Shown here in pieces: positions 47,475-64,000 of a DNA stretch of 64,000 bases. Under the pieces are notes generated by a model that was given only the letters and a program-made list of their open reading frames with translations, did no database searches and was not told the DNA's origin. A program made the position numbers and the translations under genes. The stretch's first letter is position 1. Each line of letters opens with the position of its first letter. The DNA comes from Promethearchaeota archaeon Loki_b31 (lineage in GTDB: Archaea; Asgardarchaeota; Lokiarchaeia; Sigyniarchaeales; SOKP01), in the NCBI GenBank assembly GCA_005222975.1, contig NJBI01000008.1, forward strand, positions 19,818 to 83,817, read 5' to 3'.

Positions 47475-50105
47475 ATGAAAGACAAATTTCAATTAGTCTT
47501 TGGAGCTTTATTGCACGATATTGGCAAGTTAGGGTATCGAGCGGGCGAGAGGGGGAGTCACGAAGAGATTGGCGCGAGAGTGACTCAAGAATACGACGAT
47601 GTGCTCCCTAAAGTTAACAGCTTAATTTCTTTACACCATCAACGGGATAACGGAAATGTTTTTGAGGGCGAAGGGTATAACCTCTTAAAAAAAGTTATTA
47701 TTGCCGACTGGTTAGCGTCAGCAGAAAGGATAGAGGTCGAGGAAAGAAAAGAAGTGAGAAAAGTTGGACTGAGCCCTGTATTTTCTAAAATTAATCTTTT
47801 TAACAAAGAAATTAGTCGTCATAAATTTGTTTACTTAGGAAAAGAACTCGAGCTAAAAAACGGCTCTAAAGAGATATTCCCTTTAATAGAAAATGAAGCT
47901 TCAAGTTTATTAGAGCGTTATTTTTTAGGTAACTGGAATTTGTTCAAGAAAAAATTTCAAAGGGTAGGGGAATATAAAGACGATTTCGAGGCTTTATTTG
48001 ACTTTTTGTATTCTCTTGTTAAAACGCATTTTAAATTCGTACCTTCTGCTGCTTATTTTGTCGAACCAGACGTTAGTCTTTTCGATCACTCAAAAATGGT
48101 CTGTGCGATCGCTCTTGCCATTCATAACTATTTTAAAGCGAAGTCAGTTGAAGAAAAAGAAGAAATAGCCGCTTTAAATAATTTAGGTAAATTACTGCAA
48201 GGTCTATATAGAGAGGGCGATCTATACAAAAAGGAAATAGAGAAGGATAATAAGCTAAGAGAGGTATTTAAGAACGTTAAGTTTTTTGCCTTAATTCACG
48301 GCGATTTTTCCGGAATTCAGAAGTTTATCCATTTAATCAGTTCTAAGTCTGCTATGAAGACCTTAAAAGGAAGGTCCTTCTTTTTTACTCTGTTAACAGA
48401 GAATTTTGCGAGTTTTATCGTACAGCAATTAGACCTAACGGAAGCTAACATTATATTTGCGGGAGGAGGTCATTTCTATATAATTAGTCATTGTTTTGAC
48501 GAGCTGGAATCTAAAATAAGAGAGTTTAGTATCAAGATAAACGCTTTATTTATCGAGGAACTCAATTCCAGATTGTTTCTTGCTTTGGATTTCGTTCCCT
48601 TATCTGTTGAAAGTTTGAGAAACGGGATTTCTGAAATCTGGGACTCGGCAACTAGAAAAACCTCGAATAAAAAGTTAAAGAAATTTAACGATATAATTAG
48701 TACTTCTGGTACTAACTATTTTTCGAAAATATTCGGTCCTGTTCACGATTCTGCGTTGAAAACAGAAAGATGCGTCGTTTGTAATTCGTATTCGGATTTA
48801 GAACCTATCGAAAGAGGTGGCGAGGACCAATGGTGTTCTCAGTGCAGAAGCTTTAAGGAGTTAACTGATAAATTAAAAAGTAGCAAATTTTATCGCATTA
48901 CGCAAGATAGTCAAGAGAGTTATAACGATGTTTTAAAGGAATTTAACAACGCTGTGGAGTTTGCCGACCTTAATACCGCGTCAAAAAAAGATTTAAAAAC
49001 TTGGTGTTCGATAAATAACCCCTCCTTTGAAAAAACTATTGGCGACAAACTGTTACCTATCGGATTTCCACTTAACGAAAATGACTCTATTATCGACAAC
49101 GACCAATTAGGCGAGAAATCTAAAGAAAGGACAGGATTTAACAAAATCGCCGTATTAAAAATGGACGTCGATTCGTTAGGAAAAATTTTTCAAAGAGGCT
49201 TGCGAAAAAATTACAGTCTTTCTCGAGTATCTACTCTGAGTACTTCTTTATCGTTATTTTTTAGGGGATACGTTTCAAAACTAGTAGAGACGAGCTATCC
49301 CAATTCTATCTATTTGATCTTTTCGGGAGGAGACGATCTTTTTGCTATGGGTGCCTGGGATAAAGTTATTGAATTTGCGTTTGAATTGTATCGAGCGTTT
49401 AGAAAGTTCACAGCTTACAATCCCGACATTACTTTAAGTGCTGGTATAGTTTTAGAAAGTCCTAAGTTTCGTATTATTCACGCTTCAATGGTAGCGGAGG
49501 AACAGTTGGATAACGCTAAGTATAGCGAACCTTATTCGAGCGAATTTAACACTAAAAATAAAATAACCCTATTTGGTTCGGTTTTAAAATGGGATTGGAC
49601 CTTAGAAAAAGAACTAAAACATCTTCAATTGACCAAAGATTCTAAAGATATTAAAACGCTTCGCAGAGAGCAAATTATCGAGGTCTTTGAGACAAAAGAC
49701 GACGCCAAAATCAACGCGTTCCTTATCGATTGGCTTAACGACAAATCAGAATTCGAACTCTCATTAATTTTAAAAGACGTTCTGACCTATCTGCTCGTAA
49801 AAAAGGATTTTTCTAAATCAATGCTCCACAAATTAGAAACTTCTATAATAGGAGTAAGAAAATTACTTGAAGATTCCTTAAAAAGAAAAGTTAACGTTCC
49901 AAAGTTATGGCGATTAAAATATTATTTGAGAAAGGTTTTAGGCTCAAAAGACCGCGAAGTGAGGTTGTTGAGCCAATTTATTGTTTACGCTTTTGAAATA
50001 ATAATTAAAAACAATTTGTTTAAGACCGATCCAAATTTACAAATTAAAAACGTTGAATTCATAACTGTCGCAATAAAGTGGGCAGATTACTTAACCAGAA
50101 AATAA
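47475..50105 (+). CDS. cas10: Type III-A Cas10/Csm1 (HD nuclease plus palm cyclase)
   Basis: LLHDIGK HD motif, DFSGIQKFI, LKGRSF, CxxC/CxxC Zn finger, KMDVDSLG, SGGDDLF. Confidence 0.97.
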   Translation: MKDKFQLVFGALLHDIGKLGYRAGERGSHEEIGARVTQEYDDVLPKVNSLISLHHQRDNGNVFEGEGYNLLKKVIIADWLASAERIEVEERKEVRKVGLSPVFSKINLFNKEISRHKFVYLGKELELKNGSKEIFPLIENEASSLLERYFLGNWNLFKKKFQRVGEYKDDFEALFDFLYSLVKTHFKFVPSAAYFVEPDVSLFDHSKMVCAIALAIHNYFKAKSVEEKEEIAALNNLGKLLQGLYREGDLYKKEIEKDNKLREVFKNVKFFALIHGDFSGIQKFIHLISSKSAMKTLKGRSFFFTLLTENFASFIVQQLDLTEANIIFAGGGHFYIISHCFDELESKIREFSIKINALFIEELNSRLFLALDFVPLSVESLRNGISEIWDSATRKTSNKKLKKFNDIISTSGTNYFSKIFGPVHDSALKTERCVVCNSYSDLEPIERGGEDQWCSQCRSFKELTDKLKSSKFYRITQDSQESYNDVLKEFNNAVEFADLNTASKKDLKTWCSINNPSFEKTIGDKLLPIGFPLNENDSIIDNDQLGEKSKERTGFNKIAVLKMDVDSLGKIFQRGLRKNYSLSRVSTLSTSLSLFFRGYVSKLVETSYPNSIYLIFSGGDDLFAMGAWDKVIEFAFELYRAFRKFTAYNPDITLSAGIVLESPKFRIIHASMVAEEQLDNAKYSEPYSSEFNTKNKITLFGSVLKWDWTLEKELKHLQLTKDSKDIKTLRREQIIEVFETKDDAKINAFLIDWLNDKSEFELSLILKDVLTYLLVKKDFSKSMLHKLETSIIGVRKLLEDSLKRKVNVPKLWRLKYYLRKVLGSKDREVRLLSQFIVYAFEIIIKNNLFKTDPNLQIKNVEFITVAIKWADYLTRK

Positions 50106-50175
50106 AACATAATTTAATAAAAAATAATAAAACAATTAAAAACGAGGAAAAATTACGTATTTTAGTAGATGAAAA

Positions 50176-50607
50176 ATGTCGTATAAAAGTAAAAGAAATT
50201 ATGATGGTAGAAAAGACGACCGTGGAAATTCTGGGAATCAATTAGTTTTAGATATTAAGCGAAACGCCGAAAATATTTTAACGGAAGAAGATATAGAAAA
50301 ATTTATAGATCTCAGCGAGAGGTTTGGAACGTACTGTGCCAAAAACGGTATTTCAACGTCGCAAATTCGGGGAATATTTCAGAAAGTTAAACGATTACCG
50401 GACGATTTTGAAAGCTCGAAAAAAGAGTTGAATTTGTTGCGTCCAAAATTAGCGTATCAAAAAGGCAGGTTTTCAAAATTAGGGCCGTTGACAGAAGTTT
50501 TAGACGATTTAATTAAAAAAGTAAAAGACGATTCTACTTTAAAAGGGTTTAAGAATTTCTTTGAAGCAATTATCGCGTACCATAAAGCTGCTGGAGGTGC
50601 AGAATAA
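50176..50607 (+). CDS. csm2: Csm2 small subunit
   Basis: TSQIRGIF, LRPKLAYQKGR, FFEAIIAYHK. Confidence 0.95.
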   Translation: MSYKSKRNYDGRKDDRGNSGNQLVLDIKRNAENILTEEDIEKFIDLSERFGTYCAKNGISTSQIRGIFQKVKRLPDDFESSKKELNLLRPKLAYQKGRFSKLGPLTEVLDDLIKKVKDDSTLKGFKNFFEAIIAYHKAAGGAE

Positions 50608-50608
50608 A

Positions 50609-51400
50609 ATGGAAAAGTATCAATTAAAAGGAAAAATAATAATAAAAGGCAAAATTGTAGTAAAAACAGGTTTAGCAATTGGGGGAAGCACCACTTCGTT
50701 AGATATTGGAGGTATGGATTCTCCGGTAATTAAAGACGGAAAAGGCGTTCCTTATATCCCTGGAAGCTCGATAAAAGGCAAATTAAGAAGTCTATTGGAG
50801 CAATCCTACTACCCACTCCGAGCTAAAGATCAAAAAGATGGAAAAGGGTATTTTCATCCATCGCAGAGTATTCACATGTTTGATAACAATACCATTGACT
50901 CAATAATGAGAATTTTTGGAGCTCCTGACACGAAGGAACCCGTGAGATGTATTTTCCGAGACGCGTATCTCGACTACGACCATTTCGAAAAAAATCGAGA
51001 GGAGTTATTCAAGAGTCTAGAATTAACATTTACGGAAGACAAGATAGAAAACGTTATCGATCGAATATCCGCCAGAGCTATGCCAAGACACTTAGAGCGC
51101 GTTCCTATGGGAGCATATTTTGATTTTGAAATCATTTTCGACTTATTCTCAGAAGAAGACAAAGAACTTTTGAAAACGCTATTTCAAGGATTAAGACTCC
51201 TCGAGGACGATTACTTAGGAGGGAGCGGGTCGAGAGGTAGTGGAAAGGTCTCGTTTGTAGGGATGTCTATGTTATACCGGTCAATTGACTACTACAAAAA
51301 CGAGCAAAAAGAAACGAGTTTAGTCGATAAAGAATTCAATCTTAAAGATATAGAAAGCGAAGATTGGTTTGCGAATGTTATTGGTAAAATTAATATCTAA
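50609..51400 (+). CDS. csm3: Csm3 RAMP backbone RNase
   Basis: TGLAIGG, IGGMDSPV (catalytic Asp), PYIPGSSIKGKLRS, YLGGSGSRGSG; ATG at 50609. Confidence 0.96.
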   Translation: MEKYQLKGKIIIKGKIVVKTGLAIGGSTTSLDIGGMDSPVIKDGKGVPYIPGSSIKGKLRSLLEQSYYPLRAKDQKDGKGYFHPSQSIHMFDNNTIDSIMRIFGAPDTKEPVRCIFRDAYLDYDHFEKNREELFKSLELTFTEDKIENVIDRISARAMPRHLERVPMGAYFDFEIIFDLFSEEDKELLKTLFQGLRLLEDDYLGGSGSRGSGKVSFVGMSMLYRSIDYYKNEQKETSLVDKEFNLKDIESEDWFANVIGKINI

Positions 51401-52544
51401 GCGCAGGAACTATTTCAGCATTGGAAAGGACTATACAAATAGTACTAGCGTTGTAGTCCATAGTGACACTTTATTCAGTGCCATCTGCAATAATTTACGC
51501 CTTATCTACGGAAGAAGCGTCTTAGAAGACTTTTTGGCCGCGATATCAGAGAGCTCTGCCGTTAATAAAACGCCGTTCCGAATTTCTTCTTGCTTTCATT
51601 ACGTTGACGTTTATAGAGAAAACGAGTTAGTAAATACCCTTTATTTTTTGCCAAAACCGTCGATTAGACTACCGTTTGATCCTGTATCTCAACAGAATCT
51701 CAACGAGAGTTCAAAACTATTTAAAAAAATTGAGTTTGTCTCTTTTGAAATCGTTAAAAAACTACAACAAAACAAAGAAATATCTTTTTCTCGATATCAC
51801 ATACTTGACAAAAAATATTTATTGGACGATAAAGATTTAAAAGACTTAGGCTTAGAGAAATTCTTAAAGCCTTCAGATGAATCCTTCCCAAGCGATTACA
51901 AAGCAATTAATAAGCAAATCTCTATTTTTGAAATCTTAACCGAACAGAAAGTAAGCATAAGCCGTCTTCGAAAAGAGTCGCAGCCGTATCTTTGGCAAAA
52001 AATGAGGTTTAGAAAATCTCGCTATTACATTAAAGATGATGGTAAGCGAATTTATTACGAGTTAATTCCCAGCTTTTATTTTCTATTTGATTGTTCTGAA
52101 TTAGAAGACCATTATTTAAAGAAAATAACAGCGGCCTTGCGACTTATCGCAGACCAAGGGCTCGGGGGGAAGCGGAGTCTTGGAAGTGGGCTGGTAGACA
52201 AAGTAGAATTTATCGAAATAGACGCAAACTTTCCACACTGTACTTTATTTGAGCAAAAGAAGGATGGTTTGCTCGTAAACATTTCTTTAGTGTTCCCCAC
52301 GATAGAAGATATGGAAAAGATTTTATATTTTAAACTGTTCGGACGGAGCGGGTACATTTATTCTCCAGAATCTAGCTCTATACGCTTTAACGACCTTAAG
52401 TTCGTTGAGGAGGGGTCAATTTTCGACGAAGAGGTTCCGGGAAAACTAGTTCAAGTTGCTTCCGAAAAATTTAAATCGGAAAATCACGAAGTCTATAAGA
52501 ACGGAATAGGTTTTTACGTAAATATAGGAAGTATAGAGGGGTAA
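51375..52544 (+). CDS. csm4: Csm4 RAMP
   Basis: HSDTLFSAI, RISS, FLPKP, GLGGKRSLGSG, EEGSIF; ATG at 51375. Confidence 0.94.
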   Translation: MLLVKLISKRRNYFSIGKDYTNSTSVVVHSDTLFSAICNNLRLIYGRSVLEDFLAAISESSAVNKTPFRISSCFHYVDVYRENELVNTLYFLPKPSIRLPFDPVSQQNLNESSKLFKKIEFVSFEIVKKLQQNKEISFSRYHILDKKYLLDDKDLKDLGLEKFLKPSDESFPSDYKAINKQISIFEILTEQKVSISRLRKESQPYLWQKMRFRKSRYYIKDDGKRIYYELIPSFYFLFDCSELEDHYLKKITAALRLIADQGLGGKRSLGSGLVDKVEFIEIDANFPHCTLFEQKKDGLLVNISLVFPTIEDMEKILYFKLFGRSGYIYSPESSSIRFNDLKFVEEGSIFDEEVPGKLVQVASEKFKSENHEVYKNGIGFYVNIGSIEG

Positions 52545-52551
52545 TAACAAA

Positions 52552-53859
52552 ATGAAGCGTACGAGTTTTTCAGAAGAATCCGGTTCTGACAAATTAGAAA
52601 TTACGGGCTTATCTCCGATTTACATAGGTTCTGGCGACAAGTACTCGCAACTCGATTACGTTAGCGATGGGAACAAAATTCATGTCATTGATTTCAGTAA
52701 GATTTTAGATCACATTCCCTTAGAATCAATTGACGACTTTACAAACGAAATTAACGCAAATTTCAAAAATAATGTTTGGAGAGGCGAAGTAAAAGAGTTT
52801 TTAAAAAATTACAACGTTGATTGGAAAGATTATGTGGAAAAAAGTTACGATTTGGTCGGAGAAATCGGTAAAAACGAAATTAATCAATTTGTAAAAACCT
52901 CAGATCAAATCTATATTCCGGGTTCGAGCGTTAAAGGAGCGATAAGAACTTCAATTCTGTATCAAATTTTAAAAAACCACCCCAACAAAAGAGCTCAGAT
53001 TTCCGATTATATTAGTCGCAGCTATAGACCTCGAGATCGAGACCTCCAACGGCTATTACGTTCTGATGGTAAGACGGATTTGTTGAGGGCTTTAATCGTT
53101 TCCGATTCAACGCTTAAGGACAGGCGCTCTTTCACTAAAGTAGTTAAATCAAACGTTTATCACTTAAGAGAAAGAGAATTGCAATCGCCGATTTTTAACG
53201 AGATACTAGGTAAAGACTTCAAGAGTAGCGGTTTCATAAAAATAAACGATAAATTGGTCGATTCGGGTTATTTGATCTCTAATTTCTTTTCGCTTAAAAA
53301 GGAAGCGATTTTAGAGGCTATAAACTTATTTTCTCGCGAAATCATTGAACAAGAGCTCCAACAATTTAGAGACCAAGATGATGAGAACTTAACCGAAATC
53401 GTAAGATTTTACAATGGTTTAACAGATCAGATTGAATCGATGAAAGACAATGAGTGCGCTCTTCGTTTGGGGCAAGGTTCGAGCTTTATTGCGATCACTA
53501 TGTTCTTACAATTTAAAGACAACTTTAATTGGATAAAGCGACTTACAAATCTTGAAGTTTACACTTTTAACGCACCTGATCGTCAGGATAGAAGATATGC
53601 GATCGCTAGAGATCGCGGATTTACGGTTTTACCAGATCGCAACTCGGAGCACAAACCAAGATTTGGTTTGAACGAGAAGTGGTTATGTAAAGCGATAAGA
53701 ACTATACAACAAAAGAAAATTAAAATAGTATCGTTAATCGAACAAGTTAGTGGAGAATTCAACTTTAAAAACATAGTGTACCCGATTACGCGTAAATTCG
53801 TAGTTTCAGGCGATAAACCGATCTTACCGTACGGGTGGGTGAAGTTAAAATGGGGTTAA
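52552..53859 (+). CDS. csm5: Csm5 RAMP
   Basis: LSPIYIGSG, YIPGSSVKGAIRT, LRLGQGS, PYGWVK. Confidence 0.94.
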   Translation: MKRTSFSEESGSDKLEITGLSPIYIGSGDKYSQLDYVSDGNKIHVIDFSKILDHIPLESIDDFTNEINANFKNNVWRGEVKEFLKNYNVDWKDYVEKSYDLVGEIGKNEINQFVKTSDQIYIPGSSVKGAIRTSILYQILKNHPNKRAQISDYISRSYRPRDRDLQRLLRSDGKTDLLRALIVSDSTLKDRRSFTKVVKSNVYHLRERELQSPIFNEILGKDFKSSGFIKINDKLVDSGYLISNFFSLKKEAILEAINLFSREIIEQELQQFRDQDDENLTEIVRFYNGLTDQIESMKDNECALRLGQGSSFIAITMFLQFKDNFNWIKRLTNLEVYTFNAPDRQDRRYAIARDRGFTVLPDRNSEHKPRFGLNEKWLCKAIRTIQQKKIKIVSLIEQVSGEFNFKNIVYPITRKFVVSGDKPILPYGWVKLKWG

Positions 53860-53906
53860 ATTTGAAAGATAGATGACCGTTTAAAATTTGTATAGGGGGG
53901 TAAAAT

Positions 53907-55373
53907 GTGATACTTATAGCCAATATTGGGAATAGGGACGTTCTATACAAGGGAGTTCCGTTAAAAAACAATAATTTCCGACGGGAAAGCGAAGCGTTAT
54001 TAAAAAATTACGAGCTTGAGAAAGATAATCTTTCCTTTCCGATACTATCTCTCTATCTCGAGACTTTTAAAGACAAATTAAAGAGAATTTATCTATTTGT
54101 AACCAATCAAGAAGACGAGCGATACCGACCTTCCGATACTCTTTTTTTAGGTAGTATAATTAAATTATGGGTCAAAGAGATGTATAATGTTAGCGTAAAC
54201 GTGGTAGATTACGTTTTAAATCCCACAGATTACGAACTTACGTATAGATATTTTACTAATTACTTCTTACAAGAAAGAAGCGTTTTTGACAGAGCGGAAA
54301 AGCGTTTAATTTCTTTATCGGGTGGAACGCCCCAAATGAACGGCGCTCTTTACGTTATATTATCTTCGATCTACCCTCAAAATAACGAATTTTATAGCGT
54401 AGAACAAGGCAATTTAATTCCTGTTAATCACGAAAAAACAATTAATAAAATTTACGCAAAGAAAGCAAGTAGTGAACTGTTGCGGATTTATCAATATCAT
54501 TCAATCGTGCGATTATTAGAAAGGTATAGCTTATCAAGAACTAAATCGCTCGTGTTTTTGTTGAAATACGCCCATTTCAGGAGAAACTTTAACTTTGAAG
54601 AAGCTAAAAACAATTTAGCCGAGTTTAAAAAAACAATTCCGAGCGCTCAACACAAGGATTATGATTTCCTCGATTTAGATGACGTTGTTTCCCCGAAGAA
54701 TTTAATCAAAGAACTTTTCTGGAGGATCGAAATTTGCTATAAAAACCATAATTATTTGTTTTTAATCGCGTTATTGTTTCGATTAGAAGAGGCTCTTTTG
54801 TTCGAAATAGTTAATTACTTATTTAAAGACGATTATAAGAAAGATTTTAAGGATCGAAAAGAGACCCACTCTGAATTCGTAGCGTATTTAGAGAACAACG
54901 AAAAGAATTTATGGAACAACTTGAAAGAAACTACGGTTAAAGGACAAAAATTGCTAGTAAATCCTAACGATCTAAATCGAATTGTTCTATTTTTTATTGC
55001 TTACTACAAATGCAAAGAGTTAGAAAGTAAGGGAGTTTATATTCACCAAGTTAGATACATTTTAGATATTTTAGATAAAATTAATAAATATCGCTACGAC
55101 GAGGAGGGTCGCAAGGAGTTTTACGGAGACCAGCTCGGAAGCAAGTGTTTAGGGGATTTACGAAACAAATCTCTAATCGCTCACGGTTTTGAACCTGTTT
55201 CTAAAGAAGTTATTGAGGAATTATATAACGAGCAATTAGATAAATTTTTCAATAATTTAAAAGCAAAAATAGAAAATTTGCTCGGGCTATTTTTAGGGGA
55301 GAAATCGCCTAAGATTAATAATATTTTCAAGACAATTAACGAAAAATTATCGGTCTTAATTAAAGATTTATAA
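53907..55373 (+). CDS. csm6: Csm6/Csx1-like CARF-HEPN ribonuclease
   Basis: N-terminal Rossmann/CARF region (ANIGNRD...SLSGGTPQM) and HEPN motif LRNKSLIAHGF; lies inside the csm operon. Confidence 0.82.
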   Translation: MILIANIGNRDVLYKGVPLKNNNFRRESEALLKNYELEKDNLSFPILSLYLETFKDKLKRIYLFVTNQEDERYRPSDTLFLGSIIKLWVKEMYNVSVNVVDYVLNPTDYELTYRYFTNYFLQERSVFDRAEKRLISLSGGTPQMNGALYVILSSIYPQNNEFYSVEQGNLIPVNHEKTINKIYAKKASSELLRIYQYHSIVRLLERYSLSRTKSLVFLLKYAHFRRNFNFEEAKNNLAEFKKTIPSAQHKDYDFLDLDDVVSPKNLIKELFWRIEICYKNHNYLFLIALLFRLEEALLFEIVNYLFKDDYKKDFKDRKETHSEFVAYLENNEKNLWNNLKETTVKGQKLLVNPNDLNRIVLFFIAYYKCKELESKGVYIHQVRYILDILDKINKYRYDEEGRKEFYGDQLGSKCLGDLRNKSLIAHGFEPVSKEVIEELYNEQLDKFFNNLKAKIENLLGLFLGEKSPKINNIFKTINEKLSVLIKDL

Positions 55374-55399
55374 TTAATCAAAAGGATTTATTAACCAAT

Positions 55400-56074
55400 A
55401 TGAAATTACAAATTTTAAATCTTTTTCTCGTTGTAGACAGGGAGATCGAAGAGACTTCTAGAAAATTGCGAGGGTTTATTGGAGAAAAATTCGCGAGCTA
55501 TCACGAGCTTCATCACCATTTAAATTCTCTCGATCGTAGGAAGTTAAAATACGAGTATCCAAAAATCCAATATAACGTTCATCGAGATAAAGCAATTATT
55601 TTAGGGATAGGTGAAAATAACATCTCGATTTTAAGAAACATCGTGCTAACCCTTAAAGAATTGCGTTTAGGACGCAACACTTACGAGATTCGAGAAATAA
55701 AAGCTCATTACAGCGAACCTGAGTTTAAAATTACGGAAAAAAACGAGTTAAAGCTTTATTCTTTTCGCACTCCGTGGATTGCCCTCAACGAAAAAAACTA
55801 TAAGCAGTACAAAGACGCCTCGATCAAGTCAAAACGCACCCTGTTAAAAAAAATTTTGATCGGAAACATTCTTTCCGCGTCAAAAAGCTTTGAATATACC
55901 GTACCCGCAACAATTAGCGTGGAATTAGACATATACCCGTTAAAAGTTACGTACAAAGGCGTAGACCTTGTGGGTTTTAAAGGGAACTTCGAGACTAACT
56001 TCCTCATACCTGATTATTTTGGATTAGGAAAAGCCGTATCGCACGGCTACGGCACCTTAAAACGGGTAGAGTAG
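55400..56074 (+). CDS. cas6: Cas6 (Cas6b-like) crRNA endoribonuclease
   Basis: KLRGFIG, YPKIQY, TPWIALN, LIGNILS and G-loop GLGKAVSHGYG. Confidence 0.94.
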   Translation: MKLQILNLFLVVDREIEETSRKLRGFIGEKFASYHELHHHLNSLDRRKLKYEYPKIQYNVHRDKAIILGIGENNISILRNIVLTLKELRLGRNTYEIREIKAHYSEPEFKITEKNELKLYSFRTPWIALNEKNYKQYKDASIKSKRTLLKKILIGNILSASKSFEYTVPATISVELDIYPLKVTYKGVDLVGFKGNFETNFLIPDYFGLGKAVSHGYGTLKRVE

Positions 56075-56730: not shown

Positions 56731-58103
56731 GTAGCAATAAAATATCCAACAAAACAAGGATTGAAATTATCGTGAGCTTTTCGGTACATCATATACTCGT
56801 CCCAGTAGCAATAAAATATCCAACAAAACAAGGATTGAAATATTTTTAGATATGATTTTGTTTTTTTCATTTATAATGTAGCAATAAAATATCCAACAAA
56901 ACAAGGATTGAAATTAGATAAAATTCATTTATATTAATATTAAACTTATTATGTAGCAATAAAATATCCAACAAAACAAGGATTGAAATTAGCAAGCGAT
57001 CTCTTTTTCTCCTGGAATAAATAAAGTAGCAATAAAATATCCAACAAAACAAGGATTGAAATAAACGATTGATGGCACGTGTGGTTCATCGCTTTTGCGG
57101 TAGCAATAAAATATCCAACAAAACAAGGATTGAAATTTACACATATCACATCACTCCATATATTTTTTTGTTGTAGCAATAAAATATCCAACAAAACAAG
57201 GATTGAAATTAAGTTTTTTATCGTCAGTTATGTTTAATTCTAATATAGTAGCAATAAAATATCCAACAAAACAAGGATTGAAATAATTTAAACTATTGTG
57301 AGTAGTTGTTTCATATAGTGTGTAGCAATAAAATATCCAACAAAACAAGGATTGAAATGTTGGGTTAGATCAACAAGAAAATTACAAGGTTTAAAACGTA
57401 GCAATAAAATATCCAACAAAACAAGGATTGAAATCCTACATCGTGGTATATACCGTCTTTAGGTCTAATCGTAGCAATAAAATATCCAACAAAACAAGGA
57501 TTGAAATTCTGATCGTTCGATTTGGTTGAACAGCCTCCGCAAACGTAGCAATAAAATATCCAACAAAACAAGGATTGAAATTGTTTAACACACTTACCGA
57601 TCCACTTAATAACTTCCGGGTAGCAATAAAATATCCAACAAAACAAGGATTGAAATAGCATAAAACCCAATTCTATCCCTATAATAAAAGTAGTAGCAAT
57701 AAAATATCCAACAAAACAAGGATTGAAATTCCATGTAATGCATTATCTCCCTAACATGAGCAATACCAGTAGCAATAAAATATCCAACAAAACAAGGATT
57801 GAAATTGTTTTTGTAGGCATTGGTGAACATTTTCTCGTATCTGTAGCAATAAAATATCCAACAAAACAAGGATTGAAATATACAGAAACCTAACAATTCC
57901 ATTCTATAACCCGCAGTAGCAATAAAATATCCAACAAAACAAGGATTGAAATCAATTTTCTGTTATTATGTGTTTTGTTAGACTTCTAAGTAGCAATAAA
58001 ATATCCAACAAAACAAGGATTGAAATTTTTCATGTTCATCTATTGCCTGATTAATAACATCTTGTAGTAGCAATAAAATATCCAACAAAACAAGGATTGT
58101 TAA
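56731..58103 (+). CRISPR. CRISPR array 2: 19 repeats (last degenerate), 18 spacers; repeat GTAGCAATAAAATATCCAACAAAACAAGGATTGAAAT
   Basis: 37-nt identical repeats with ~36-40-nt spacers; terminal repeat ends GATTGTAAT. Confidence 0.98.
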
Positions 58104-58184: not shown

Positions 58185-58475
58185 ATGGTAAATTTGAATG
58201 AAAATAGACTTAAGCAACTTCTCGGAAATATTAATCAAAATCCTCAGATGAAGGATCAATACGAATCCAAGTGGCATAGCGTTGTACATTTTTTGCATAA
58301 CAATGTCGGATATAAAATCGCAAAAGTAGCAAAAGCAGGTTCACAAGCAAAACACACGGAAAGTCGCAATAGCGATTTAGATATAATATTCTCTACTTCC
58401 CCCAATCAAAATGTGAATAATGTTCTTAATACCATTCAAGATAAAGCAAAAAAGAATTATGGAAAAGAATTATAA
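58185..58475 (+). pseudogene. Truncated CD-NTase/OAS-like (Pol-beta superfamily) nucleotidyltransferase
   Basis: AGSQAKHTESRNSDLDIIF matches GSxAKxT...SDxD; the ORF stops at 96 aa, before the third catalytic Asp. Confidence 0.65.
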
Positions 58476-58531
58476 GATTAAATAATAAACCAGAAATTGG
58501 TTCGTTCATTAGAGATTGGTTATGTTTAAGA

Positions 58532-59026
58532 TTGCTTCAAATTCAAATTAAGAAAAAATTATCATTTTATAACACATATAATGTCGATGAACTTGATTTC
58601 TTCACATTATCTCCAAGAAATTTTGAAAGACTTCTTTTTTGGATATTTAAAAAAAAGAAGGGTTGGAAAGAGATACAATGGAGAGGTGCGGGGGGTAGTG
58701 AAAAAGGCAAAGATATACTTGCTATAAAAAAGAAAAGTGAAAGGAATTGGATAATCCAAGCAAAACGGGAAAAAAGTTTTAGTAGGAGCAACTTTGAACA
58801 AGAATTTGAAAAAGTTTTAAGTGAACTTAAAAATTATGATTGTGAGGGATATCAGATTTTTTTAGCTAGAAACGCTACTGAAGATATATTTAAATGTGGA
58901 GAGGAATTAGCTAAAGAATATAAGTATCAAATTAAAGTAAAAGATAGAGAGGAAATTAATTATATTGTAAAACATGAACCTATTTTATTGAAAGAGTTTT
59001 TCAATTATCCAATAAAAACTAATTAA
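58532..59026 (+). CDS. Mrr-like restriction endonuclease domain protein
   Basis: LSPRNFERL...GGSEKGKDILA...WIIQAKR, an Mrr_cat FE...D...QxK pattern. Confidence 0.8.
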   Translation: MLQIQIKKKLSFYNTYNVDELDFFTLSPRNFERLLFWIFKKKKGWKEIQWRGAGGSEKGKDILAIKKKSERNWIIQAKREKSFSRSNFEQEFEKVLSELKNYDCEGYQIFLARNATEDIFKCGEELAKEYKYQIKVKDREEINYIVKHEPILLKEFFNYPIKTN

Positions 59027-59263: not shown

Positions 59264-62200
59264 TTATTTATTAACATAAAATTTCTCAAAAACTATTAAT
59301 GTTTTATTTATTGATTTTATTATTTTTGAAATATTATTAAGAAAAATTGTTTTATCTAATATTCCTCCATGACTGCCAGGATTGCGTGTTAGGCGTGCTA
59401 GCGATGTAAATTCTTGAATTATTCTAAGATCATTCTCAGTAATTATACTTGGAAGAGCCTTCTTTAAGTCTAAAATAAGTGTATCTGAATTTAGATTTAA
59501 TAGCTCATTAATTAAAAACGATATATGAGCCATAGACATATGATTTCCCTTCCATAGCTCTCTTAAACCTAATGGTAGTTTTTTCCGGTCCTTATATGGA
59601 ATTATTGAATTAATTGGATAAATATCTGTTAATACATCTAAGAAATTCTTAGAAAATGTAGAATGATAGCAACAATCAAATCCATTTGTTAATTCTATAA
59701 AAATAATACCTGTATTTTCAGTTAATGTATCTAAATTATTTACATTTCTAATTAGTTGCTCTGCTAATTTAAAATGGTCTAATGCGTCTTTTACATGTAC
59801 TATGTTTAAATTAATAATGCCCATTATATACATGTCCGTTATTAAACTATGTGCGTGCATTAAATCAGCAGTCTTTTTATCTATATCTTTGAAGTGTTTT
59901 TCTGCTTTAAGAAAAATTTCTTTTGCTTTTATATTATTCAATTTAAATTGGTACATTTTTGCTAAATTATTCCAAAACACTGGATCACTGGGATTAATTT
60001 CAAGAGCCAATTCAAATTTTTCTATTGCATTATCAAGTTTTATTGTATCACTATAAACTGTTCCAATGTTATTTAATAGAGAAGCCTTAAATTCATCATT
60101 CTTAGTAATATCCGATGCCTTGTTAAAATATACAATAGCTTCATCAAAATAGCCCAAATCTGCTAGAGATAATCCAACATCACAATAAATAATATCAAGT
60201 TTTTTTACGAAACTTTTAATATATTGAGGTTCACTAATCATTTTCAAAATTAATTTACTGAATACATCTTTTTTAAACCAAATAATTAGATACTGAAATA
60301 ATGACTTCAGATTAGTATTAACACTTATATAATTAGAATGATCCCTAATTTGATATATCTTAAATAGATTTTTACTAGCTTTCTTATAATCTCCTTGAAA
60401 TAAATGTAAAATTGTTAAATATTTATTATAATAACCATCATCAGGCTTGAAGTCTAATGCTTGATTTAGATAATAAATAGCAGAATCATATTCTTTTAAA
60501 TATAAAAAGGGAAAGGCAAGTGTTTCATAAATAATTTTCAATCTTTCATTCTCATATTCTTGATAGGATAATTCTTCAATATCTAATTTTAATCTTATTG
60601 CTTGTTTAAAACTTGCCATTGACTGTGCTTCAAGACACCTATTTAATAATTTGTTTAACTCCCAGAAATTTTCATTAAATAACAAAATGTCATTTGCATT
60701 ATTCTGTAAGAAAATTTTTCTATAATCAGCATAAATAAAATATATTTCAAAACTTGAAGGTATTAAAGGTTCTCTCTCTAATATTTCGACAGACTTAAAA
60801 TCGTAGATAAAAGGTTTATTTTTTTCATAATGAAAGCCTTCTGAAGTTAATAAATTAGGGGGAATTAATGAAAAAACAACTTCAAATGGATTAGTTTCTT
60901 TGTTTTTTAATAATTCCTTAAAGTTAACACTCAAGCTATTAATAATTTTTCTTTCATTATTGAAATCATTAATTAATCGATATAAGATACTACTTAAAAT
61001 CTCAAATTTTATTTTATTATTGGTATTGTCCTCCCTATTCCGCATTAAATAATAGATTTTAATTACAAATTTAACAATTGCATTCTTATTTGATTTTACT
61101 CCAATATTTGCTAATAAAAATAGAGTTTCGATCTGAACACGAGATTTTGGATCTATTAGGTTTATTAATACTTCCTTAGAGTTCTTAAATGCTTCTTTGC
61201 AATCATTAAGAAATGGAAATTTATCGAACAATATTTGTAATGCTTTATCATATTTCTTCTGTTCAACTAATGATTTGCAGAGATATTTAGTCAAAATAAG
61301 TAATTCATTTGTATTTCCTTTAGCTGAATTAATTGTGCCCTTTTTTTCAAATTTCTCTAAGTTGATTTCTAGAATTGGTTGAATATCTGAGAGAAATCCA
61401 AATTTATACCAAATTGGTAAATCTCCAATAAATTGATTGTAATCGTAAAAATCTGGATTTTTTAAAATATATTTTATAACAGAATCAATACCATAGAATT
61501 GATTTAAATAATTTAACTTAATTTCGGTTTTTAAGGAATTGAAATATAGAATTCCTGCAATAACAAGAAATGATCTTCTTAATTTTACTTTATTTAATAA
61601 ATCTGCTTCACTTTTTACAACATCTTGGAAGTGTTCAATATATTCATTAATATCCTTTAATAATAGCTGAAAATTTAAATTGTCAATGATATCTTGCATA
61701 GATTCGCATATTAAAATGTTATTTCTTTGAGCATCTATATAATCCAAGAAGAATGGATTAATATTCTCAACAACTTCTCTTATAGCGTTTAATAAATAAT
61801 GATAGGCGTTTCGGTTTTCGCCATAGGGATTTGTTGTCCAAAATAAGTAATATCCCTGATGGTATCCAGTAATAAATTCCATAAGAATTGATTCAGCGGC
61901 ATAAGCTTCTGGTTTTTTCCCTGCTTCCATACAGTCTTTCCATTTTTGATGAAACCAACTCTTTTTAGTTTTAGTAGGTAAGAGAGCCGAGGTAAAAATT
62001 TTTAGATAATTATAGTCTCTGATGTTTTGAATTTTAAATTTCATTTCATAAATCTCTAAATCCTTATCGACTTTTTTAGATTGAGATTGGAAATTTTTAA
62101 ATAAATCCGATTCTTGGACAAAATTTAAAATTTCTCTCTTTATTCTCCTTAAAACTGCCTTATTTTGATTTAATTCATCGTATATTTTTAACCGAAATCC

Positions 62201-62404
62201 GGGATCAAGTCTAATTTTTTTAAGAAAAAGATTTTGGAGAAGTAATTCTCTTCCTACTTCTTTATAATTAGTTTTAGGAATTGTTTCTATTTGGCCTATA
62301 AGTTCAACACGATGCCTGAATATAAAACGTTCTATTAGAAAAAAGGGATCGTATTTTTCTTTAAGGGTATTTATTTCTTTTTTACTGCCTTCCTTTGGTT
62401 TCAT
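59264..62404 (-). CDS. Large TPR-repeat protein with C-terminal HEPN-like RxxxxH motif
   Basis: TPRs (YDSAIYYLNQALDFKPDD; LLNNIGTVY...AIEKFELALEINPSDPVFWNNLA); RNPGSH at 59386-59369. Confidence 0.75.
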   Translation of the reverse strand: MKPKEGSKKEINTLKEKYDPFFLIERFIFRHRVELIGQIETIPKTNYKEVGRELLLQNLFLKKIRLDPGFRLKIYDELNQNKAVLRRIKREILNFVQESDLFKNFQSQSKKVDKDLEIYEMKFKIQNIRDYNYLKIFTSALLPTKTKKSWFHQKWKDCMEAGKKPEAYAAESILMEFITGYHQGYYLFWTTNPYGENRNAYHYLLNAIREVVENINPFFLDYIDAQRNNILICESMQDIIDNLNFQLLLKDINEYIEHFQDVVKSEADLLNKVKLRRSFLVIAGILYFNSLKTEIKLNYLNQFYGIDSVIKYILKNPDFYDYNQFIGDLPIWYKFGFLSDIQPILEINLEKFEKKGTINSAKGNTNELLILTKYLCKSLVEQKKYDKALQILFDKFPFLNDCKEAFKNSKEVLINLIDPKSRVQIETLFLLANIGVKSNKNAIVKFVIKIYYLMRNREDNTNNKIKFEILSSILYRLINDFNNERKIINSLSVNFKELLKNKETNPFEVVFSLIPPNLLTSEGFHYEKNKPFIYDFKSVEILEREPLIPSSFEIYFIYADYRKIFLQNNANDILLFNENFWELNKLLNRCLEAQSMASFKQAIRLKLDIEELSYQEYENERLKIIYETLAFPFLYLKEYDSAIYYLNQALDFKPDDGYYNKYLTILHLFQGDYKKASKNLFKIYQIRDHSNYISVNTNLKSLFQYLIIWFKKDVFSKLILKMISEPQYIKSFVKKLDIIYCDVGLSLADLGYFDEAIVYFNKASDITKNDEFKASLLNNIGTVYSDTIKLDNAIEKFELALEINPSDPVFWNNLAKMYQFKLNNIKAKEIFLKAEKHFKDIDKKTADLMHAHSLITDMYIMGIINLNIVHVKDALDHFKLAEQLIRNVNNLDTLTENTGIIFIELTNGFDCCYHSTFSKNFLDVLTDIYPINSIIPYKDRKKLPLGLRELWKGNHMSMAHISFLINELLNLNSDTLILDLKKALPSIITENDLRIIQEFTSLARLTRNPGSHGGILDKTIFLNNISKIIKSINKTLIVFEKFYVNK

Positions 62405-62429
62405 TTTTATTCAATATTTATATTTTTGT

Positions 62430-63152
62430 TTAAATAAAGGGTTGAACCTCCCCCTCTATTCTCATTTCGCCCATCCAAAATAACTTATCTTCCTCATTTT
62501 TATCTATTCCTAAATAGACACAAGGTAAAAGATATTTATTAGCAAGCTCTAATAGTTTAAACGAAAATAATTTGCTCAATGGTGTTATGTCTATAATAAT
62601 ATCTGCTTCTTTCATTTCTTTACTTAAAATATCTTCAATTCGTTGAAAAAATTCAGATTTAGTATGACGATATTCTCTATAAGGGAGAATAACGAATTCA
62701 TCAATCTTCATTAAATTTTCATCAATTATATGGTCATCTCTTTTCGCTTTACCATCGGGAGTTGTAAAGCATATTTTTCGAGTAATTGGAAATTTATATT
62801 TCCTTAAAATGTTTAATACTAAATCTGGAACGCGATATCCTGTCTTTAAAGAACCAAAACCGGTTATTAATGTGTAATTCTTTACATCTTTCCCTAAGAT
62901 TTTTCTTACTTGCTGACGAGCTGCGGGATTCAAAGAAATCGAATTAATTTTTACATTTCCAACTTTATAAAGCGTTTTTTTCCTTATCATGTCTAATTCT
63001 TCTAATCGATTCAAATGATAATGTAGATTCGGTGCAGATGTACGCAATTGTTCTTGTAATTCCTTTTGTTGATACTCTTTTTCAAATAAAATATTTAAAA
63101 TCTGTCTTTGTCTTTCTGAAAAATTTTCACCAGTTAATTTTAATCTCATCAA
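62430..63152 (-). CDS. N-terminal wHTH plus C-terminal CARF-like transcriptional regulator
   Basis: ArsR-type HTH (QKELQEQLRTSAPNLHYHLNRLEE); Rossmann C-terminus (LITGFG...IIIDITPLSKLFS...CVY). Confidence 0.7.
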   Translation of the reverse strand: MMRLKLTGENFSERQRQILNILFEKEYQQKELQEQLRTSAPNLHYHLNRLEELDMIRKKTLYKVGNVKINSISLNPAARQQVRKILGKDVKNYTLITGFGSLKTGYRVPDLVLNILRKYKFPITRKICFTTPDGKAKRDDHIIDENLMKIDEFVILPYREYRHTKSEFFQRIEDILSKEMKEADIIIDITPLSKLFSFKLLELANKYLLPCVYLGIDKNEEDKLFWMGEMRIEGEVQPFI

Positions 63153-63744
63153 ATTTATTATAGTTTTTATCCTTATAATTTTATTCTTTAACGGCCATTA
63201 AATAATTTATAAAATAGCGATTAAACAATCATTTTTAAAGAAATAATTAATCATTAACTTATGGTATTAGAAAGTGTTAATTTTCATTTCTGGCCTTATT
63301 GTAATTTTCAATGTAAATGCTGTTTTGCTCAATTAAAGGTGATTGCGTAAAATTTTCATAAATAAATTTATAATAAAGATTTTGGTATTTCCTGAAATCT
63401 TTCGATTCAAAAGATATAAAATTTTTCTCATAGATATCAGATATTAAGGAAAAGATCGTGTTTTCCCTTGTTTGTAATAAAAGCCTGTCCTACTGGAAGC
63501 TTTTTCAATCGCTCTAATTCTTCTCTATTGCTGAAATATTACTTTAAAAGTAATATTCTTAGTTATTTTAAAGATTTTCTCAGTAGGCAATTCCAAATTT
63601 TTTTTTATTAGTTTTTGTTTAACAAAGTTTAATGGTAGATAAGGCAAAAAGGAGCGGAAAAGATTCCTTTGTCTTGGCTGGCAGGGGTTTTTGAGAATTA
63701 CCTTATTTTTCCATCTTTTTAGTTATAGCTATAATTTTGGAAAT

Positions 63745-64000
63745 TCAACCATTCGATTTAATATTTAATTTAAGGCGAGATTTTTCAATTTTCTCTTTAA
63801 TGCATGTTTCAATAAATTTTAACATATCTTTTTCCAATTTCTCATATCCCTCTGGAGTATCTTTGTAGATAATTGTCCTAATATGTCCTAAATCGAATGG
63901 AATTTTATCTTTTTCTTGACAAATATGAATCACACATTTATCTTTTTTTTCGTGAGCTCTTCCTAATTCATAAAATACATTAGGATTTTTATCAGTTAAA
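63745..64000 (-). CDS. Partial (runs off window) nucleoside 2-deoxyribosyltransferase/TIR-like protein
   Basis: LTDKNPNVFYELGRAH...IPFDLGHIRTIIY motif. Confidence 0.8.
   Translation of the reverse strand, partial: LTDKNPNVFYELGRAHEKKDKCVIHICQEKDKIPFDLGHIRTIIYKDTPEGYEKLEKDMLKFIETCIKEKIEKSRLKLNIKSNG

Follow-up and report, generated by a model that had tools for sequence, protein, structure and literature searches.

A stretch of 64,000 nt from the genome of Promethearchaeota archaeon Loki_b31 was analysed; it is called the window here, all coordinates are counted within it, and its genome (3.52 Mb) is designated G000. Near the end of the window, two co-oriented open reading frames (ORFs) are located on the minus strand and separated by 25 bp (62405-62429). 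The first encodes a predicted regulator with a winged helix-turn-helix (wHTH) and a CARF domain, and the second encodes a large TPR protein with a HEPN-like C-terminus. An earlier note on this DNA had presented the two genes as a candidate new defence module, in which cyclic oligoadenylate (cOA) from a neighbouring type III CRISPR system could switch the transcription of a TPR-HEPN ribonuclease. The observation behind it is confirmed, as the ORF coordinates reproduce the orientation and the 25-bp spacing. As for the interpretation, the domain identities held (that of HEPN as a probable one), while the fixed two-gene module and the novelty of the architecture did not. The GC content is 25-27% over 58-64 kb versus 30-42% in the rest of the window. 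The two genes and the domains of the regulator are as follows:

62430-63152, minus strand: wHTH-CARF transcription regulator, PADLOC family CARF_m5 (ORF of 240 aa from TTG)
62883-63152, minus strand: wHTH of the regulator, approximately residues 1-90 (Pfam, fold)
62460-62882, minus strand: CARF domain of the regulator, approximately residues 91-231 (profile, fold)
62571-62591, minus strand: DITPLSK motif of the CARF domain, residues 188-194 (alignment of 42 sequences)
59264-62404, minus strand: TPR/alpha-solenoid protein of 1046 aa with a HEPN-like C-terminal domain (ORF, Pfam, PADLOC)

The ATG at 63149 is the likelier start of the regulator, because its homologues are 239 aa in length. Pfam indicated an ArsR/MarR-type winged helix (HTH_5/HTH_24; E-value of 5.6e-7 for HTH_5) at residues 13-58 and no CARF match. 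The PADLOC model PDLC01987 (CARF_m5--CARF) matched residues 18-226 over positions 13-194 of its 195 (E 7.7e-16). The AlphaFold (AF2) model of the regulator, constructed from 42 homologues, has a pLDDT of 91.2, and Foldseek assigned a probability of 1.00 to its matches with the CARF domains of Cam1, Csm6, Can2, Card1, and Csa3. When residues 91-231 were compared using VIA-align, the highest Z score was obtained for Can2 (8bao_B; Z 13.1, root-mean-square deviation 2.2, 118 aligned residues), followed by Cdn1 (12.7), Csm6 (12.4), and Card1 (11.9), with Cad1 within 11.4-12.7; the ring nucleases Sis0811 and Sis0455 reached Z scores of 11.7 and 11.6. Residues 1-90 gave Z scores of 11-12 with MarR/ArsR wHTH proteins. 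The profile match and the fold support the assignment of the C-terminal domain to CARF and, with it, the wHTH-first order, the reverse of that in Csa3, both of which the earlier note had read from the sequence. In the 42 aligned homologues, D188, T190, L192, and K194 of the DITPLSK motif are invariant, and P191 and S193 are conserved in at least 90%; the motif can be compared with D-x-T-x-G-x-K, which we take to be the reference motif of CARF domains. The segments T97-G-F-G100 and D188-x-T190-P-L-S-K194, invariant or nearly so, are candidates for the conserved loop motifs that CARF domains have behind strands one and four.

Among known proteins, Csa3 of the CARF3 clade is similar in concept, since it also combines a CARF sensor with a winged helix and is predicted to control transcription beside defence genes in a ligand-gated manner. 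The wHTH domains of the two are homologous (hhalign probability of 83% over 50 columns). However, Csa3 has an N-terminal CARF and a C-terminal wHTH and binds cA4 (PMC8699464), whereas the domain order of the regulator is reversed, its CARF part could not be aligned by hhalign with six Csa3-like proteins from these loci, its best PADLOC model is CARF_m5 rather than CARF3, and its commonest target is viperin and not cas genes. In 12 related loci, too, PDLC01987 ranks first for the regulator, with E-values of 1e-7 to 2e-15. Thus, the wHTH-CARF architecture is already catalogued as the CARF_m5 model of PADLOC; this model has no description, though, and no function, operator, or link to viperin is attached to it in the literature found. 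The name CARF_m5 presumably originates from the 2020 classification of CARF proteins. A similar concept may be seen, by analogy, in the WYL-domain regulators of the BrxR/CapW type, ligand-sensing wHTH proteins described as travelling with varied defence systems (PMC9122601); the regulator differs from them in its CARF sensor and its archaeal host.

Where the source names the organism, the homologues of the regulator belong to Promethearchaeota, Lokiarchaeota, or Promethearchaeia, and as far as sampled the family is confined to Lokiarchaeial/Promethearchaeial Asgard archaea. No relatives of the regulator were found in the viral contigs scanned, and a tblastn search of plasmid and phage collections returned no match for either the regulator or the TPR protein. 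A search for fused, longer forms of the regulator found none, which is weak evidence. In two metatranscriptome libraries of a single study, contigs with 95-99% likeness span the regulator gene only (62449-63097) and leave the TPR-HEPN gene uncovered; such contigs cannot show transcription, and the uncovered part proves nothing. Below 62472, one of these contigs continues with a dissimilar sequence, possibly that of a strain in which the downstream cargo is different. Proteins of 370-451 aa encoded at L044:9979-11091, L045:2556-3908, and L046:367-1521 carry an N-terminal wHTH of the regulator type (52-60% identity over approximately 80-100 residues), and CBM96-like or beta-propeller C-terminal parts replace CARF in them. 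It looks like sensor domains have been swapped on one DNA-binding module in these three loci.

The distribution of the regulator was surveyed in 400 genomes of the phylum and in loci from genome and metagenome contigs, and approximately 33 non-redundant regulator loci were mapped. The regulator was matched in 19 of the 400 genomes (about 12 at full length) and the TPR-HEPN protein in eight (five at full length). The commonest neighbour of the regulator is a divergent viperin gene (PADLOC pVip, E down to 1e-86), found in 13 of the approximately 33 loci; in the tree of the regulator, the loci with viperin are scattered and also occur on a deep branch. Viperin itself is present in 27 of the 400 genomes, 11 of them in the two families nearest the window (f1 and f3), and in four of these 11 it adjoins the regulator.

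The genes downstream of the regulator vary. The TPR-HEPN family is found directly behind it in seven loci (G000, L050, G145, L056, L064, L072, and L062), with gaps of 25 or 4 bp. Five of them (G000, L050, G145, L056, and L072) represent one clade, in which the big protein is 87-89% identical; that of L064 is 47% identical, and L062 encodes a distant member recognised by an N-terminal hidden Markov model (HMM; E 1.4e-17). A CD-NTase-type cyclase is located directly behind the regulator in three loci: G185, with a 26-nt overlap, G162, and L071. Further genes found downstream encode SF1 helicases, an RNase III-dsRBD protein, a HerA-like ATPase, and many unknown proteins. In G158, the TPR-HEPN gene is found beyond viperin on the other strand. 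The pair proposed in the earlier note therefore recurs in several lineages, but it is neither obligate nor a fixed module, given viperin as the commonest partner, the changing cargo, and the TPR-HEPN genes of G169 and of another contig of G185, which have no regulator beside them.

Two side observations concern the cargo. A recurrent three-gene set, which may be an unnamed defence module, is located behind viperin in L057, L061, L066, and L076 and behind the regulator in L038; it comprises an SF1 helicase of approximately 790 aa (AAA_11/AAA_12), a protein of approximately 390 aa, and a protein of approximately 510 aa (PLD/DrmC-like in G140). In L042 (G169:C1:24000-43999), the TPR-HEPN gene is the last one of a long operon with genes for a glycosyltransferase, a radical SAM/SPASM protein, an O-methyltransferase, a nucleotidyltransferase-phosphatase, and a small VakA-like protein, at the head of which a divergent Csa3-like CARF regulator is found.

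Upstream of the regulator, the following features were identified in the window:

63171-63178, minus strand: TATA-like box of the regulator/TPR-HEPN operon (TTATAAGG), a conserved column block with a predicted function
63188-63201, no strand: candidate operator O2, the palindrome TTAACGGCCATTAA in perfect form, a short way upstream of the TATA box of the regulator and at the same position in 20 aligned loci
63211-63224, no strand: candidate operator O1, degenerate in the window; it starts 23 bp from O2 and adjoins the TATA box of the divergent (former viperin) promoter
63231-63240, plus strand: TATA-like box belonging to the divergent promoter (plus-strand sequence ATTTTTAAAG), with columns invariant in 20 of 20 loci and a predicted function
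63261-63347, plus strand: viperin (pVip) relic, with the N-terminal codons up to a stop, the radical-SAM cysteine motif among them (tblastn)

The intergenic region between viperin and the regulator is 109-111 bp in length and strikingly conserved. An alignment of 20 upstream regions, seven of them without viperin, revealed 23 invariant columns and a mean identity of 71%, with the proteins being 53-94% identical. The blocks that are conserved comprise one TATA-like box per gene, directed towards it, and two palindromes of 14 bp (TTAAYSGCSRTTAA) between these boxes; the palindromes start 23 bp from each other, and each lies just upstream of one of the TATA-like boxes. With up to one mismatch, the palindrome motif has 27 matches in the 2,195 nt of these regions, in 18 of the 20 sequences and at fixed positions of approximately 37 and 60, versus 10 matches in the 3.52 Mb of G000, but this count is partly circular, because the motif was derived from the same sequences. 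O2 is the sole perfect copy in the G000 genome; one match was found in the window versus 0.11 expected. In the fetched loci, all operator matches but three are located beside a regulator gene, and the exceptions are two matches inside genes in L033 and one in L046, where no regulator start was found within the scanned distance. The same operator is present upstream of the L044 and L045 proteins with the regulator-type wHTH. With the settings chosen, the 14-bp palindrome was missed by an inverted-repeat scan. A scan for bacterial promoters and terminators was set aside, since its results were at chance level and it does not apply to archaea.

The viperin relic shows 83% identity with residues 1-24 of pVip (tblastn). 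The DNA homology with the viperin-bearing locus L056 ends at 63315, and the breakpoint of L050 is close by. Judging from these alignments, the window has lost its viperin, and a short N-terminal relic is left. In two metagenome loci (L070:3-881 and L073:923-2206), a ThiC-family radical-SAM gene replaces viperin as the divergent partner, with the operators and both TATA boxes retained. The L050 locus is located on a 61-kb contig, 93% identical in DNA to the Asgard locus of the window and filed under a metagenome-assembled genome of the Patescibacteria group; this bacterial filing is probably a binning error.

We consider it rather probable that the locus is governed by a ligand-gated CARF_m5 regulator with two operators, whose main target in the family is viperin and which here has a TPR-HEPN cargo. 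The domain identities (for the tail, a probable HEPN domain), the candidate operators with their conservation, and the gene linkages on which this explanation is built are what the analysis shows. The regulator would be an autoregulated transcription factor of the CARF superfamily, gated by a ligand, and its dimer, which the palindromic operators imply, would bind both 14-bp operators between the back-to-back TATA boxes. As the operators are located between these boxes, the regulator would control its own operon and the divergent gene, and their position just upstream of both boxes would fit activation. The commonest and probably ancestral divergent target would be the viperin gene, and the genes downstream of the regulator would be interchangeable defence cargo. 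In the window, the deletion of viperin to a relic would have left the operator-bearing promoter with the regulator and the 1046-aa protein. The TPR-HEPN gene is almost certainly co-transcribed with the regulator from this promoter, as the gap of 25 bp (4-25 bp across the loci) indicates. The linkage of such a sensor to viperin points to an antiviral circuit that could be switched; in this explanation, the predictions are the ligand, whether regulation is positive or negative, the activity as an RNase, and an antiviral effect, if any.

Several findings weigh against it. No operator was found near the unlinked TPR-HEPN genes of G169 and G185, where it was looked for. The L050 regulator has an in-frame stop, and in L072 its N-terminus is replaced and a late stop is present, yet the TPR-HEPN gene is intact in both loci, which argues against its tight dependence on the regulator. 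The same intact genes, and those found without any regulator, would suit a different explanation, in which the regulator is mainly a ring nuclease, an off-switch degrading cOA, with its wHTH serving for autoregulation only and TPR-HEPN being an autonomous effector located downstream by chance. The ring nucleases Sis0811 and Sis0455 were indeed matched as well as the CARF domains of effectors. However, both promoters are flanked by two operators, and all 20 loci keep the divergent promoter, which argues for the control of neighbouring genes, and the gaps of 4-25 bp imply co-transcription of the cargo. This explanation therefore seems very unlikely to us, and control of the cargo and of viperin by the regulator is preferred.

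The 1046-aa protein can be divided as follows:

60725-62404, minus strand: N-terminal helical part, residues 1-560, matching no family
59885-60532, minus strand: Pfam TPRs, approximately residues 625-840 (TPR families)
59267-59767, minus strand: C-terminal domain, residues 880-1046, HEPN-like
59369-59386, minus strand: RNPGSH, candidate HEPN Rx4H catalytic motif (R1007..H1012; conservation, model)

A profile of residues 1-560 gave only weak TPR matches in the PDB, and an Atlas search with these residues yielded no meaningful lead. Four TPR families of Pfam matched above their gathering cut-offs (TPR_2, 44.2 bits; TPR_12, 43.8; TPR_8, 37.8; TPR_1, 37.3). The PADLOC model PDLC02907 (TPR) matched residues 723-1034 over its positions 565-861 of 864 (E 7.1e-8) and thus spans both the TPR region and the C-terminal domain; a relative of the protein in G128, located beside DISARM genes, matched it with E 1.7e-54. 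However, this model has no description and names no HEPN domain. A HMMER search of 1.84 billion representatives revealed 16 relatives of the TPR protein at E<=1e-30, in addition to remoter ones that share the TPR region and the C-terminal domain. When the C-terminal domain was searched in 5.8 billion proteins, only eight close relatives were found, with Pfam labels of TPR alone. The family appears to be largely restricted to Asgard archaea, its members are annotated only as "TPR repeat protein", and in the wider TPR-HEPN family the neighbours include Gabija, viperin, DISARM, and CARF3.

The TPR arrays ending in RNPGSH, as reported in the earlier note, correspond to the Pfam TPRs and to a motif at residues 1007-1012, and this motif proved to be conserved. 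In an alignment of 21 sequences with identities down to 18-24%, only two TPR glycines, R1007, H1012, and N1033 are near-invariant, the latter three at least 90% conserved; in 24 sequences, H1012 and N1033 are invariant and R1007 is kept in at least 90%, giving the motif R-N-P-x-x-H. R1007 and H1012 are thus near-invariant in the family even where identity falls to 18%. Residues 845-1046 were modelled as all-helical (pLDDT 88.6, pTM 0.85), and in the numbering of this model, the motif stands between helix 146-162, which it directly follows, and helix 174-200. In a search independent of Foldseek among 48,161 representative chains, the top 15 matches of the model, 10 of which carry HEPN, RnlA, or LsoA in their titles, included LsoA (Z 8.2), the HEPN-MNT toxin 7ae2 (7.9), the AF0298 HEPN protein 2hsb (7.9), ST0689 (7.7), the sacsin HEPN domain (7.6), RnlA (7.5 and 7.4), and an AMPylated HEPN toxin (7.3). 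TT1696 (7.8), YutE (7.5), and SO_3166 (7.4) are also among these 15; we take them to be HEPN-family proteins, on which their titles are silent. Csm6 (7.1), the TTHA-type protein 1wwp (7.0), and AbiA (6.7) are below the top 15. The published description of HEPN domains gives the signature as Rx4-6H, R being followed by N, D, or H, where helix 3 ends, and also mentions an upstream acidic position (PMC3710099). The tail of the TPR protein has the Rx4-6H spacing and a polar residue after R, and an acidic position exists upstream. [quoted passage not shown] Fusions of TPR and HEPN are listed for the LA2681, C6orf70, and DZIP3 families in Table 1 of the same source (PMC3710099).

At the same time, a part of the evidence speaks against a HEPN domain. 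The matches to HEPN folds reach Z scores of only 7-9, where the tool warns that values under approximately 13 may reflect a common arrangement in helical bundles, and Roquin, designed bundles, and vinculin-type bundles are present in the same list. A Foldseek search of the PDB with the model of the C-terminal domain returned nothing at E<=0.001 (best E 0.6), the profile search of PDB sequences was empty, hhalign gave a probability of 0.1% with three Csx1 proteins, and a Pfam HEPN match is absent in seven of the eight members. Thus, no significant match of the tail to a known HEPN family was found with Pfam, PDB profiles, or hhalign, which distinguishes it from the known HEPN RNases along with its modest Z scores. 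Two weak leads point to HEPN: a HEPN_Apea match below the cut-off in the remaining member, the G158 orthologue (E 0.0076), and the top two named Atlas clusters, which are HEPN families (0.78 and 0.76). The modest, mixed fold matches and the lack of significant Foldseek, Pfam, or PDB sequence matches would agree with a non-catalytic helical bundle for binding or oligomerisation, which would make the protein a scaffold or sensor and not an RNase. Nevertheless, R-N-x-x-x-H remains near-invariant at 18% identity, the motif is located at a helix end as in the HEPN description (PMC3710099), and HEPN proteins constitute most of the top 15 structural matches. We therefore regard the non-catalytic bundle as improbable. 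On the basis of motif conservation and the modelled fold, the tail is quite likely a HEPN domain, and it is probably a new HEPN family on a TPR scaffold. The HEPN-type tail of the earlier note is thus supported by the conserved motif and by HEPN-type fold matches of the model, though not by a significant sequence match to any HEPN family. The conserved R-N-x-x-x-H would predict a metal-independent RNase, and the TPR/alpha-solenoid part is presumed to be its sensor or scaffold.

The possible source of the ligand is located on the plus strand next to the pair:

47475-56074, plus strand: type III-A genes csm1 (cas10), csm2-5, csx1, and cas6b (NCBIfam/PADLOC-type profile matches), a possible source of cOA
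56731-58100, plus strand: CRISPR array with 37-nt repeats, 18 perfect copies up to 58026 and more copies after that, the last repeat being degenerate

The NCBIfam match of Csm1 has an E-value of 4.6e-161, Csm2-5 were also matched, and that of Csx1 has an E-value of 7.7e-54. Cas10/Csm1 of the window retains the HD (residues 13-14) and GGDD motifs. A Cas10 that appears competent is thus found 4 kb away, and the cOA-producing type III neighbour assumed in the earlier note is plausible, the csm genes adjoining the pair and both motifs being intact. Candidate ligands of the regulator are cOA made by Cas10, a CD-NTase product, or something tied to the chemistry of viperin. The likeliest would be cOA, produced here by the adjacent Csm complex; some relatives could instead obtain the ligand from the CD-NTase that is encoded directly behind their regulator. 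Cas10-like genes were found in six of the 12 regulator-bearing genomes versus roughly 58 of 400 in the phylum, a figure that sets aside HD-only matches according to our own reading of the table; the co-occurrence with cas10, which the earlier note had named as a check, is not consistent.

Five of the 12 carrier genomes, in which Cas10 has no match, speak against dependence on it, and a sixth, G185, has only a weak match. Two of the five, G158 (99% complete) and G138 (a closed 6-Mb chromosome), have neither a Cas10 (TIGR02578, TIGR02577) nor a SMODS match; G140, G280, and G125, where Cas10 is also unmatched, are incomplete. These genomes raise the question of whether CARF senses another nucleotide, such as one that viperin uses or generates (substrate, product, or by-product) or one synthesised by a CD-NTase, independently of type III CRISPR, the adjacency of csm genes being due to clustering in a defence island. 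Viperin and not cas genes is the most conserved partner, cas genes are within approximately 10 kb in some loci only (G000, G134, G125, and L079), and the CD-NTases immediately behind the regulator in three loci are orthologous (55% identity), with an intact GG...DVD motif. On the other hand, the best structural matches (Can2, Cdn1, Csm6, Card1, and Cad1) are all cOA-binding CARFs, Cas10-like genes look enriched in the carriers, and the regulator is flanked in G125, G145, and G162 by Csx1, CARF-PIN, and Csa3-like genes. A ligand unconnected with type III CRISPR appears doubtful to us in view of these points, and cOA is retained as the likeliest one.

In G162, a CD-NTase, the regulator, and viperin are located side by side around the conserved operators. 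We suggest, very tentatively, an inducible antiviral circuit of Lokiarchaeial Asgard archaea, in which a signal made by a cyclic-oligonucleotide synthase (Cas10, or a CD-NTase whose gene directly follows that of the regulator) would be read by the CARF-wHTH factor, which would then turn on viperin and exchangeable effectors such as the TPR-HEPN RNase.

Some neighbouring genes can be noted as well. Between the CRISPR array and the TPR gene, a two-gene module is found on the plus strand (58185-59026). Its first gene encodes a minimal nucleotidyltransferase of 96 aa with weak SMODS, Polbeta, and MntA-like matches, and its second gene encodes a Mrr_cat protein of 164 aa that matches the PADLOC candidate PDC-M58A (E 1.2e-11). 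The 96-aa nucleotidyltransferase was considered as a relic of the regulator-linked CD-NTases and rejected, as it is unrelated to them. On the other side of the pair, from 63745 to 64000 and beyond (L080:563-1345, minus strand), a protein of 260 aa with a weak TIR-effector-like match (PDLC00733, E 5.5e-7) is encoded; unknowns and, at the end of the contig, a fragment of a transposase come after it.

Only a few antiviral enzymes, viperin among them, are common to archaea, bacteria, and animals, and in animals viperin is induced on demand. The control of prokaryotic viperins is not addressed in the literature searched. Term searches in the available text of papers on Asgard and archaeal defence and on the evolution of viperin (PMC11291487, a 2023 viperin preprint, PMC12988326, and PMC13700489) revealed no CARF, TPR, HEPN, or regulator beside viperin, and kinases are the only viperin-associated genes discussed in the corresponding text of the preprint. 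In the papers searched, "pVip" and "Csa3" never occur together and "CARF_m5" is absent; an earlier description of the clade is possible.

Apparently, the regulator is a CARF-family transcription factor that has been catalogued without being characterised, and its candidate operators are newly mapped here from sequence comparison. In the window, it was probably left controlling itself and a probable TPR-HEPN RNase beside a type III-A system. In one Asgard order, approximately one third of the viperins (4 of 11 genomes, f1 and f3) are fronted by this conserved sensor-regulator with mapped operators, which provides a directly testable handle on their control. CARF signalling may thus drive the transcription of defences other than CRISPR. 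[quoted passage not shown]

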